The notes under the pieces were generated by a model that worked only from the letters and a program-made list of their open reading frames with translations, had not been told where the DNA came from and made no database searches. 64,000 bases of DNA from Lingula anatina. Taxonomy: Eukaryota > Animalia > Brachiopoda. The stretch covers positions 21,456,848 to 21,520,847 of the forward strand of contig CM120643.1 in assembly GCA_051362555.1 (NCBI GenBank). The letters run 5' to 3'. The stretch's first letter is position 1, and every line of letters starts with the position of its first letter. The position numbers were made by a program, and so were the translations under genes. Shown here in pieces: positions 3,201-6,200 of the stretch.

Positions 3201-6200
3201 CCAAGATGTTATTAATAAACACTATGAAGACTGCTGACACAAAATGAAAGTGCTATCCAGCAGAAAATTGATAACATAAAATTTCATTTAAAAACATGAT
3301 AACTGGACATACAAAGTTAAAACAACTAATTTTTTTTAATTAGAAAAGATAACTTGTTTTTTTCTTTTTTTTCCCGAAGAATTCATAACCATCATGTTTG
3401 AATGACCTACAGATGATTAATTCCTGGTGTTCAGTTGTGACATACCTTGCTAAACCTCCATAGTCCAGACCCTCCTCTCCACGGAATATTATATACAGCC
3501 TCCGGCGAAGATCAAAGGGCTGCAGACGCATGATCTAACAAAGGATAATGGAAAACATAAATGGCTATTCTGTCTCCAAGGCCATTTTTCTTCTGCAAAA
3601 AATCTTTGCTTGGATTTATATATGAAGATGGCGGGTGCTTATTGATTATTTTCAATATATATTTGTCAATTTATCCTTGTTTTTTTTAAAAACTTTTGTT
3701 GATCTCTTAGTATAAAAGATTGAAAATGTTTTTATCTAACTTTCACACAAAACTAAATATCACCGAAGCTTTAGAAAGTACTGAATAATACTAAGCTTTG
3801 AAAAGCAATATCTTCAACATTATTATTTCATTTTTCAAATATACATGTAAAAAAAAAAACATTCATTTAACAGTTTCTGAATTCAATGAAAAAAACTTGC
3901 AGTATTATGCCATGCTTATAACAGCCCGAGCTTCTGCAAATCACTGCCATTGCCCAGCAATCAATCCTTTCATCTTACACACAATCAGTTACTATGCAAA
4001 TTTCATCATTTTTAAATCTATGAAACATTTTTAAATCTATGAAACTATCCAAAGTTACATTCATCCCATAGTTGGAAAAATCCCCAGTACTTTCATTTCT
4101 CATTTATAAAAAAAAAAAATTCTAAACAGGAAAACATATGCAGCAAAATTATGAAGCAGTGATGATCTTTCCAAGCTTAAATTTGAAGCACACCATTTCA
4201 TTTCAATTCTTTGAATCAATGAGAATCAAATAAATTATTTATTAAAATGCATTACCTGTTGAAAAGATTCCTCAAACATGTTCTCTCGACTCAAGCTAAT
4301 TTTCACATGTCCTGGCAAAGCATTGGACTGAGGAGGAGGAGGACACAAGAACCAATCAGTATAATTGTATGATGGATTAGGTGAACTTTCAACTGATTAG
4401 TATGGATTATATGGCTATCGATCATTATAATACACCACCTTTCTGATATGATGTTCTTTGCCCAGTTTCACAAAAGAAATTTAGCTGGAAAGTTAGTCCC
4501 AACTGTAAGACCAAAAATTTTATTCTACTTTGATACAAGACGAATCTATAATGGTCCAAATGCACTGCTTTAATGACAACAGAGAAAATAGCTAATGTTT
4601 CAGTTACTCAATTTAAGTGGACTGCTATGCATTTATCCTAAAGTAGATCAAAACTTTGTGGTCATAAAATTTGGACCAACTTTTAATCTGAATTTTTTTT
4701 TCTGTGAAACCTTGAACGGTGGTAGGATCACAGCCAAACAGCAGCAGAAATGGCAGTGGATTCAAACATTTCTCAGTGGATTAGTATAAATCATATGCAA
4801 AAATCCATACATATATCAGCAAGGTTCATTGTGCCTGGATTATATCTGTTCTGTTCAGCTCCCTGCTGGATCAATTATGATATGCAGAAAAATAAGCAAT
4901 ATGGTTTCACCATGCAGAAAGCAAAGTCATGGCATACTGGTAAGCTGGTATCATAGCAACCCATAGAAGATACCATGGTTACGACCCTTTTACCTGAGAA
5001 AAGGACTCTTCAAAGAGGCTATTTCTGCTCAGAGATATTTTTACATGTCCAGGAAGAGAGTTAGACTGAAGATGGGGATAATGGGAGAGAAATAAAATAA
5101 ACAAACAAAAATTGTAAAAAAATAAACACTGTAAATTAGATAGGAGTGCTGATGTTTTGAAGAGTACTCATAATAAGTCAAGTATCTTATATATCTTATA
5201 CATACAGTGATATTCAGAAAGGAATTAGCAAAACTGAAATCTATTTACATAAAATAAATTTAAATTAAAATGAAAACCAGCACCCTGCAGTGAAATTAAT
5301 ATCATTATTATGTTAGAGATGTATCCCAAAGATCCAAAATAACAATATAATGTAAAACTATCAAAATATGCATTAAAAAATCAAGAACAAAACAAAATAA
5401 TAATAATAATAATTTCCCAAAAGTTGCTTTTATTTGGACTTTACAAAAATGGTACTTAAACTGATAACAAACCTTGAAGAAAGTACTAATAACAAACCTT
5501 GAAGAAAGTAAGTTATTTATCTTCTTGTCGGTTTATTAATATTGTAATTTATTTGTTCTCTTAATTTTAGTTTATTTGAAAGATTAATTCCCTATCCCTA
5601 GTTAACAAAACAGTTACAGTGATGAAAATCACAAACTTACCTGACAGAGATATCTGAACTGACCAAGCTTCCAGCGGAAACTTCTCTCATATTGAATGGG
5701 AACACCATAAGCTCCTTTGGGCCTGGGAAAGATAATCGTATAATGAATCGTAAGTGACACTAGGTTAATCAACTATATCAATTACACTCCAATGCATATT
5801 TGATAGTCTGTTATGTTAACCACCAAACACAGGCCAAACACCAGTAAAATTGAAGCCAGGTCAATAAAATTTTCAAGTTTTCAAGTCCAGCTGGTTCTAA
5901 GACCCTGGTGGTATAAAGGGCCAGTAAGTCTTTTTTTTAAATTTTTGGTAAAGACTGTTTAGACAGACTTACCCCTTTGCAGGTTTCCCTCTAGGATCTT
6001 GGAATGTTGTAGAACGTGAGTTATGATCAACAAAGTAGCGCACACCTTCAGGTGTATATCTCATTTCCCAGCCCTCAGGTAAGGGATCTTCCTGAATTAT
6101 ACTGAAATATACAAACAATTACAATAACAGCAAACATTTAGACATAAACCTACACCCATTCCAGATCAGCATCTGAACATACCTTACAACAAGGTACATT

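Follow-up and report, generated by a model that had tools for sequence, protein, structure and literature searches.

The window analysed here, a stretch of 64,000 nucleotides from the brachiopod Lingula anatina, encodes on the minus strand of its first 20 kb a C2-WW-HECT ubiquitin ligase. The Pfam domains PF00168, PF00397 and PF00632 are present in the protein, four WW exons are recognized in its translation, and the nearest solved structures are those of WWP1, Itch and WWP2. When a single exon was used as query, Lingula anatina Su(dx) was matched at 100%. With the C2, four WW and HECT domains of the Su(dx)/WWP/Itch class and with WWP1, WWP2 and Itch as its nearest kin, the gene is identified as the Su(dx) of Lingula anatina, a HECT ligase of WWP/Itch type. 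An earlier interpretation made from the letters of the DNA (the sequence-only reading) had already called it a ubiquitin ligase gene, and the domains and closest solved relatives agree.

Two minor features were observed elsewhere in the window. At 830-1033 (minus strand), the exon 853-749 is preceded, 79-160 nt upstream, by two or three incomplete, degenerate copies of its initial 14-24 nt, and reads take only the acceptor at 853. An AT-rich short stretch at 1072-1107, matched by more than 100 reads with differing flanks in runs X8 and X9, is a repeat common to an abundant transcript elsewhere.

Two tandem exons used one at a time

Between two constitutive exons, the ligase gene carries two copies of a 72-nt exon:

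5641..5722, minus strand: constitutive exon upstream of the pair, encoding the end of the WW4 linker and the first helix of the HECT region (RNA joints 5721/5972, 5065/5641 and 4327/5641; translation)
4994..5065, minus strand: exon B, the first copy, 72 nt, phase 0/0, GT-AG (RefSeq isoform X2, XP_013380651.1; 47 junction reads, five of eight runs)
4256..4327, minus strand: exon A, the second copy, 72 nt, phase 0/0, GT-AG (RefSeq isoform X1, XP_013380650.1; 174 junction reads, seven of eight runs)
3446..3534, minus strand: constitutive exon downstream of the pair (RNA joints 3534/4256 and 3534/4994)

The RNA evidence comes from eight of the nine runs listed under the same species label, 6-30% of each being read. 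Exon A is the commoner form, its 174 junction reads comprising 75 from the upstream exon to A and 99 from A to the downstream exon, against 21 and 26, respectively, for exon B; in these totals, one read spanning a whole exon may count twice. Neither a B-to-A joint nor one skipping both exons was found among the joints listed for the eight runs, and because a joint needs three reads to be listed, rare forms with double inclusion or double skipping may exist below this level. Equal in length and phase, homologous and linked by all four expected joints, exons A and B are a real pair and a member of the class of tandem duplicated mutually exclusive exons. The sequence-only reading had proposed them as alternatives, and the RNA junctions do show one-at-a-time use.

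The choice between the two exons differs strongly from run to run. The A/B junction counts were 24/0 in run X1, 15/0 in X2, 9/20 in X4, 0/6 in X5, 47/0 in X6, 32/3 in X7, 28/7 in X8 and 19/11 in X9, a heterogeneity with a chi-square p of 4e-17, and the share of B ranged from 0 of 47 to 6 of 6 reads. Within one study, runs X6 (47/0) and X4 (9/20) differ with a p of 9e-12. Given the many read variants, the runs may derive from genetically different animals; the exon variants among those listed, two in B and one in A, are all synonymous. Read depth in the introns does not exceed about 4. Slight depth was observed at 4358-4651 and 5093-5239, just upstream of exons A and B, in the B-using runs X4 and X5, where it possibly represents partly spliced RNA.

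In kind, the pair is ordinary, and both isoforms are already annotated: the RefSeq proteins Su(dx) X1 and X2 of Lingula anatina (XP_013380650.1 and XP_013380651.1) carry the same two exons as alternatives. This annotation is silent on the mechanism, on the sample dependence and on the matching pairs in Owenia and in a metagenomic locus described below, which come from the present analysis. A literature search found no paper on the A/B exon pair of Su(dx), and WWP, ITCH and NEDD4 do not appear in the main texts of PMC5740500 and PMC9741552 or in one supplementary file of the latter, a scope that does not extend to their event tables.

At the protein level, exons A and B encode 19 identical residues out of 24, with 47 of 72 nucleotides identical. 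This stretch aligns with the segment of human WWP1 holding F577, E578 and F581, residues located at a hydrophobic HECT pocket in a modelling preprint (10.64898/2026.08.08.742959), the residue numbering having been matched to the preprint by motif. The A and B proteins would thus differ at five of 24 residues beside the N-lobe pocket of the HECT domain in which F577 of human WWP1 sits; a functional difference between the two HECT isoforms is conceivable.

Relatives and age of the pair

Homologous loci were sought in metagenomes, where the best 80 of 227 loci were taken, and in genomes, where the scan gave a single locus; neither these 80 loci nor the genome locus included DNA from another brachiopod or from Owenia. 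Among 27 genomic-looking loci, several of them near duplicates, 15 span both flanking exons and the 12 partial ones were left out. Two copies of the exon occur in one of the 15 (L006) and a single copy in the other 14. The locus from the genome scan (L081), on a mollusc-like contig, also has a single copy. This contig is filed in a bacterial metagenome-assembled genome and, as it bears an intron-containing animal Su(dx) gene, represents host contamination.

In L006 (4044-4309), both copies have intact splice sites and follow each other in the same order as in Lingula, 71 nt apart; in a tree, this locus falls among lophotrochozoans, without firm support. In the gene model of Owenia fusiformis (P0025), both copies are found in a row within one protein, at residues about 490-538, and are probably a mis-annotated alternative pair. 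Isoform look-ups in 20 clusters returned an alternative pair in Lingula only, among the proteins screened.

Positions 15-16 of the exon distinguish two types of copy. A non-acidic residue followed by Ser/Thr is present in 20 of 20 deuterostome, arthropod and nemertean proteins, and Asp/Glu followed by Asn/Gly in 40 of 40 mollusc and annelid proteins. All three two-copy cases, Lingula, Owenia and L006, have the deuterostome, arthropod and nemertean type in the first copy and the mollusc and annelid type in the second. The first copy therefore appears to keep the ancestral residues at positions 15-16. The duplication is likely to be old because 13 of the 19 residues common to A and B have differing codons, and the exon pair as such is probably old. 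A single early duplication followed by later losses is fairly probable from these patterns; gene conversion or a separate duplication is also possible, as the Lingula copies share private residues.

Exclusion mechanisms and intronic complementarity

Three simple mechanisms are described as enforcing mutual exclusion, namely decay of frameshifted transcripts, U2/U12 mismatch and steric hindrance (PMC6071210, PMC5740500), and most human exon pairs are reported to fall under none of them (PMC5740500). The same was found in Lingula. Frameshift decay was ruled out by the length of both exons, 72 nt and open in frame, and U2/U12 incompatibility by the three donors, all ordinary U2-type with 7-9 of 9 consensus matches in GT-AG introns. 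Steric hindrance was ruled out by the 666 nt of the B-A intron, whose branch-point motifs lie at most 70 nt from exon A. Since these common alternatives are excluded in Lingula, a structural mechanism is conceivable. Three further features of the B-A intron bear on the mechanisms considered below:

4328..4401, minus strand: 3' end of the B-A intron, comprising the pyrimidine tract that serves exon A and branch-point-like motifs (A at -70, -50 and -29)
4400..4740, minus strand: long fold-back of 340 nt, an imperfect inverted repeat (-91.5 kcal/mol, z -5.1, 0 of 100 shuffles)
4911..4916, minus strand: UGCAUG, a candidate site of RBFOX type, 78 nt after exon B (sequence motif)

The fold-back takes up half of the B-A intron. 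Reads at 4604-4658 have other flanks and many differences, which suggests that it belongs to a repeat family transcribed elsewhere, and it is likely a MITE-like repeat, although the window contains no second copy and Rfam no match. An intronic snoRNA or microRNA was likewise considered and rejected, all five Rfam matches being far under threshold. Two short head-to-tail duplications, of 25 nt at 5460-5509 and 19 nt at 4007-4044, were also observed in the introns flanking the pair.

In L006, a branch motif lies about 43 nt from the donor of the 71-nt intron, that is, under the limit of 50 nt between donor and branch point given in PMC5740500, unlike in Lingula. Exclusion could then have had a steric origin, with an ancestral inter-copy intron too short to splice, and an equivalent outcome would follow in Lingula, where the fold-back and smaller hairpins would draw the expanded intron together. 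The strength of the fold-back and an 8-nt branch motif common to L006 (-28 before copy 2) and Lingula (-29 before A) are in keeping with this scenario. Nevertheless, about 250 nt separate the donor of B from the Lingula fold-back, far over the limit, which itself comes from human data; introns near 90 nt occur elsewhere in L006, and the fold-back looks like a repeat insertion. We consider this origin highly improbable.

The sequence-only reading had put forward a different mechanism, in which a docking site downstream of both exons pairs with either of two competing selectors, one after each copy. The sites concerned, and one that was absent from that reading, are:

3931..3960, minus strand: GC-rich patch containing the proposed dock at 3951-3939 (55% GC in a 28% GC intron)
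4151..4163, minus strand: proposed selector A, likely a chance match (RNAduplex -13.0 kcal/mol; pairing probability 0.00-0.02)
4749..4762, minus strand: proposed selector B, extendable to about 4743 (RNAduplex -16.2 kcal/mol, -21.2 extended; pairing probability 0.02)
4863..4890, minus strand: best predicted partner of the dock region (duplex -28.0 kcal/mol; pairing probability about 0.88)

The three motifs (3951-3939, 4762-4749 and 4163-4151) read as quoted on the minus strand, both pairings can be drawn as described with overlapping dock bases, and the layout agrees with the claim that a pairing after B would loop out A. As to the pairing detail, both duplexes exist, but the bulged extensions that had been drawn are not favoured by RNAduplex, which pairs 10-11 bp in B and 9 bp, one of them G-U, in A.

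Several observations qualify the specificity of these pairings. The patch 3960-3931 is the most GC-rich part of its intron, and when the intron preceding both exons is searched with RNAduplex, its best partner again falls on the 15-nt window of this patch; the patch is therefore sticky in general. No perfect helix between the two introns is better than the B-dock match (-14.7), but the last intron forms a -14.9 helix with the intron upstream of B, and several other helices reach -13. The partition-function fold of 5722-3446 gives pairing probabilities for the dock of 0.02 with selector B and 0.00 with selector A, and joins 3960-3931 instead to 4890-4863. Extended duplexes with the dock follow the same order, with -28.0 kcal/mol for 4890-4863, -21.2 for B and -15.5 for A. 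Forcing selector B costs 3.0 kcal/mol and forcing selector A 5.1, against 0.0 for the pairing with 4890-4863, and pairing of selector A stays at 0.02 even with the B side omitted from the fold; global folds of 2.3 kb are, however, unreliable. In these predictions, the claim of two competing selectors is supported on neither side, selector A being ordinary in strength and unpaired (at most 0.02) and selector B being outcompeted by 4890-4863.

Two kinds of control served to judge the strength of the complementarity: dinucleotide shuffles, and real stretches taken by sliding an identical geometry along the window, the latter overlapping one another and including coding and repeat DNA. With RNAduplex and 15-nt windows, the shuffles as good as the real introns, out of 24, numbered 2 for the B side, 9 for the best partner within the intron, 4 for the weaker of the two and 0 for the sum. 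In a simplified, faster model, the B side was equalled in 52 of 275 shuffles, 105 of 236 real stretches and 33 of the 117 real stretches below 35% GC. In the same order of controls, the figures were 148, 203 and 88 for the match within the last intron, 52, 153 and 59 for the weaker of the two, and 19, 90 and 19 for the sum. Windows of 22 nt gave, for three statistics, 32, 55 and 53 of 84 real stretches and 23, 24 and 23 of 87 shuffles; windows of 30 nt gave 11, 29 and 44 of 76 real stretches and 6, 10 and 18 of 57 shuffles. Against its own shuffles, the A/B intron pair reached z values of -1.0 and -1.2; of the 12 neighbouring intron pairs of the gene, two others lay below -2 at each window size, and introns of ordinary exons match or beat those of A and B. 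An upstream dock or bidirectional pairing was rejected, the intron before B pairing with the B-A intron no better than shuffles (31/40 and 16/20).

Among 533 shuffles and 158 real AT-rich stretches, the best dock window also had an A-side partner as good in 33 and 15 cases, respectively, and both conditions together held in 6 and 6. The expectation that the duplex energies exceed those of shuffled introns is consequently borne out weakly for the joint arrangement, but not for each match alone, which is ordinary, nor in comparison with the other introns. Controls as good as the joint match make up 1-16% on the kinder statistics and about half on others; for complementarity overall, the figures are 1-6% on the kindest post hoc statistics and 7-50% or worse on the rest. 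Because about ten statistics were tried after the match had been seen, the complementarity is a mild excess at most.

The two-selector arrangement itself supposes that duplication of the exon together with one hairpin arm left one dock (3951-3939) and two competing selectors, pairing with selector B including B and looping out A, and pairing with selector A favouring A. In its favour, both matches exist and have a common core in the rare joint arrangement noted above, and in 19.8 kb of the gene's sense strand only four sites equal or surpass A in pairing with the 13-nt dock, B being the best, in a count for which the dock had been picked for these very matches. Such a layout is predicted in PMC6071210 and proposed for human CD55 in PMC5740500. 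When larger loops were allowed, however, the A-side partner was equalled at 30 nt by 43 of 84 real stretches and 27 of 111 shuffles. Moreover, selectors B and A sit at unequal distances from their splice sites (231 and 92 nt), and the introns after B and after A bear no significant likeness to each other (68/500 shuffles).

L006 adds evidence on both sides. The Lingula dock and selectors were not found there (at least 5 mismatches of 13-14), and the introns of the two loci do not align (best 13/200 shuffles among nine comparisons); as the distance is too great for a fair test, this absence does not refute the dock. After both copies of L006, a 10-of-11-nt motif occurs at equal offset (5/500 shuffles) and can pair with one G-rich downstream site (5/40 shuffles), a weak lead for what may be a parallel layout. 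A whole-intron search for a selector in the 71-nt intron of L006 found none, its pairings being equalled by 82, 97 and 161 of 200 shuffles. Taken together, we regard the two-selector arrangement as quite unlikely, and its match as likely incidental.

As B-side partners score above A-side ones, a pairing that matters would be on the B side. One may thus suppose that proteins set the ratio and that exclusion of A is helped by a single B-side pairing, 3960-3931 with 4890-4863 or, in a second register, with 4762-4743, which would loop out A. The 340-nt fold-back would shorten the loop, A would be used when the pairing fails, and no A-side selector would be necessary. In 14-3-3zeta, two selectors and one dock are named (PMC4174434) for three exons (PMC6071210), which suggests that the last exon may need none. 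The 4890-4863 duplex is part of the minimum-energy fold; with larger loops allowed, it was equalled by 5 of 84 real stretches and 5 of 111 shuffles, and a second non-overlapping B-side partner for one dock window was found in 3-5 of 84 real stretches and 1 of 111 shuffles. On the other hand, under the stricter loop model the duplex was equalled by 11 of 76 real stretches and 6 of 57 shuffles, these statistics were picked after the fold was seen in a 2.3-kb global prediction of the unreliable kind, and the patch is simply where its intron is richest in GC. Such a pairing also leaves the skipping of B during A use unexplained. We find it possible, though rather unlikely.

Control of exon choice and known systems

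Whatever the structure, a sample-dependent switch would call for trans-acting control, and fixed RNA competition alone does not explain a switch that is nearly all-or-none between samples. We therefore favour, with a probability of about 0.45, an explanation in which the tandem 72-nt exons are used singly and tissue- or stage-dependent splicing proteins likely make the choice. Exon A would be the default. In B-using cells, factors on the B-A intron, at UGCAUG and at three ACUAAY candidate sites, would favour B and also repress the 3' splice site of A. RBFOX activates exons from downstream and represses them from upstream, and ACUAAY is a QKI/STAR motif. From its place after B, the UGCAUG would accordingly be a candidate site for activating B and repressing A. 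The window has no excess of this hexamer (41 sites against 48 expected), so that its position alone, not its frequency, is suggestive of a role. ACUAAY occurs three times in the B-A intron against twice across the other 12 introns checked; one of the three falls within the fold-back and one may be a branch point. These motif counts are small and post hoc.

The exon pair persists in L006 without the Lingula dock and selector motifs, and in worm unc-32, RBFOX together with CELF chooses exon 7a over 7b (PMC3585155). Competing structures are described as usually not conserved over long distances (PMC5740500), while introns around such exons generally tend to pair with flanking introns (PMC6071210), and protein control and RNA structure can act jointly (PMC12772994).

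A broader history can also be drawn, in which an early lophotrochozoan pair provided two versions of the HECT N-lobe pocket and the mechanism then changed, becoming steric with a 71-nt intron in one lineage and, in Lingula, relying on a new dock with two or three partners around a repeat-derived hairpin. We judge it unlikely. Collectively, these data support a real exon pair that is likely protein-regulated, a B-side loop-out being possible, and leave the docking mechanism proposed at the outset unproven; the finding is sound and modest. Its value lies in an apparently old duplication in a conserved ubiquitin ligase, with the order of the copies kept in three two-copy cases. With no simple means against double inclusion in Lingula and steric hindrance possibly at work in L006, the locus offers a compact test of exclusion after intron expansion. 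If the long-range pairing were true, the docking model would extend to brachiopods; if the new-dock reading were, a docking-site system would exist in a brachiopod, beyond insects and vertebrates.

Downstream docking systems of insect 14-3-3zeta, Mhc and MRP1 were reportedly treated by Yang et al. in 2011. The sequence-only reading had invoked the first two as precedents, and downstream docking is indeed described for them in PMC6071210; the systems documented comprise insect 14-3-3zeta exon 5, Mhc exons 7, 9 and 11, and MRP1 (PMC6071210, PMC4691838, PMC4174434). Like them, the Lingula locus has tandem alternative exons, a candidate complementary site beyond the last of them and a pairing by which the later copy would be looped out. 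Unlike the insect elements, which are conserved and mutation-tested, those of Lingula are known from one sequence, have energies near chance and were assigned pairings other than those predicted. Lingula resembles docking systems by this layout and by overlapping complementarity, and is not filed among them; the literature search found no docking-site example from brachiopods.

The vertebrate SCN exons 5a/5b, with an old duplication, no policing by decay, RBFOX sites and long-range pairing that promotes skipping of the second copy (PMC12772994), are a model for the looping out of A by a B-side pairing, except that the SCN elements are tested and conserved from human to shark and those of Lingula are predicted. 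For control by proteins, which we prefer, the counterpart is exons 7a/7b of C. elegans unc-32, regulated by RBFOX and UNC-75/CELF (PMC3585155). As in Lingula, these form a two-exon exclusive pair with UGCAUG nearby, and the choice is tissue-dependent in unc-32 and sample-dependent in Lingula. In unc-32, UGCAUG lies after the second exon and its binding has been shown (PMC3585155), whereas the candidate UGCAUG of Lingula lies between the copies. It is L006 that has the unc-32-like placement: its UGCAUG follows copy 2 by 46 nt, UG-rich sequence separates its two copies, and this layout resembles that of unc-32 exon 7.
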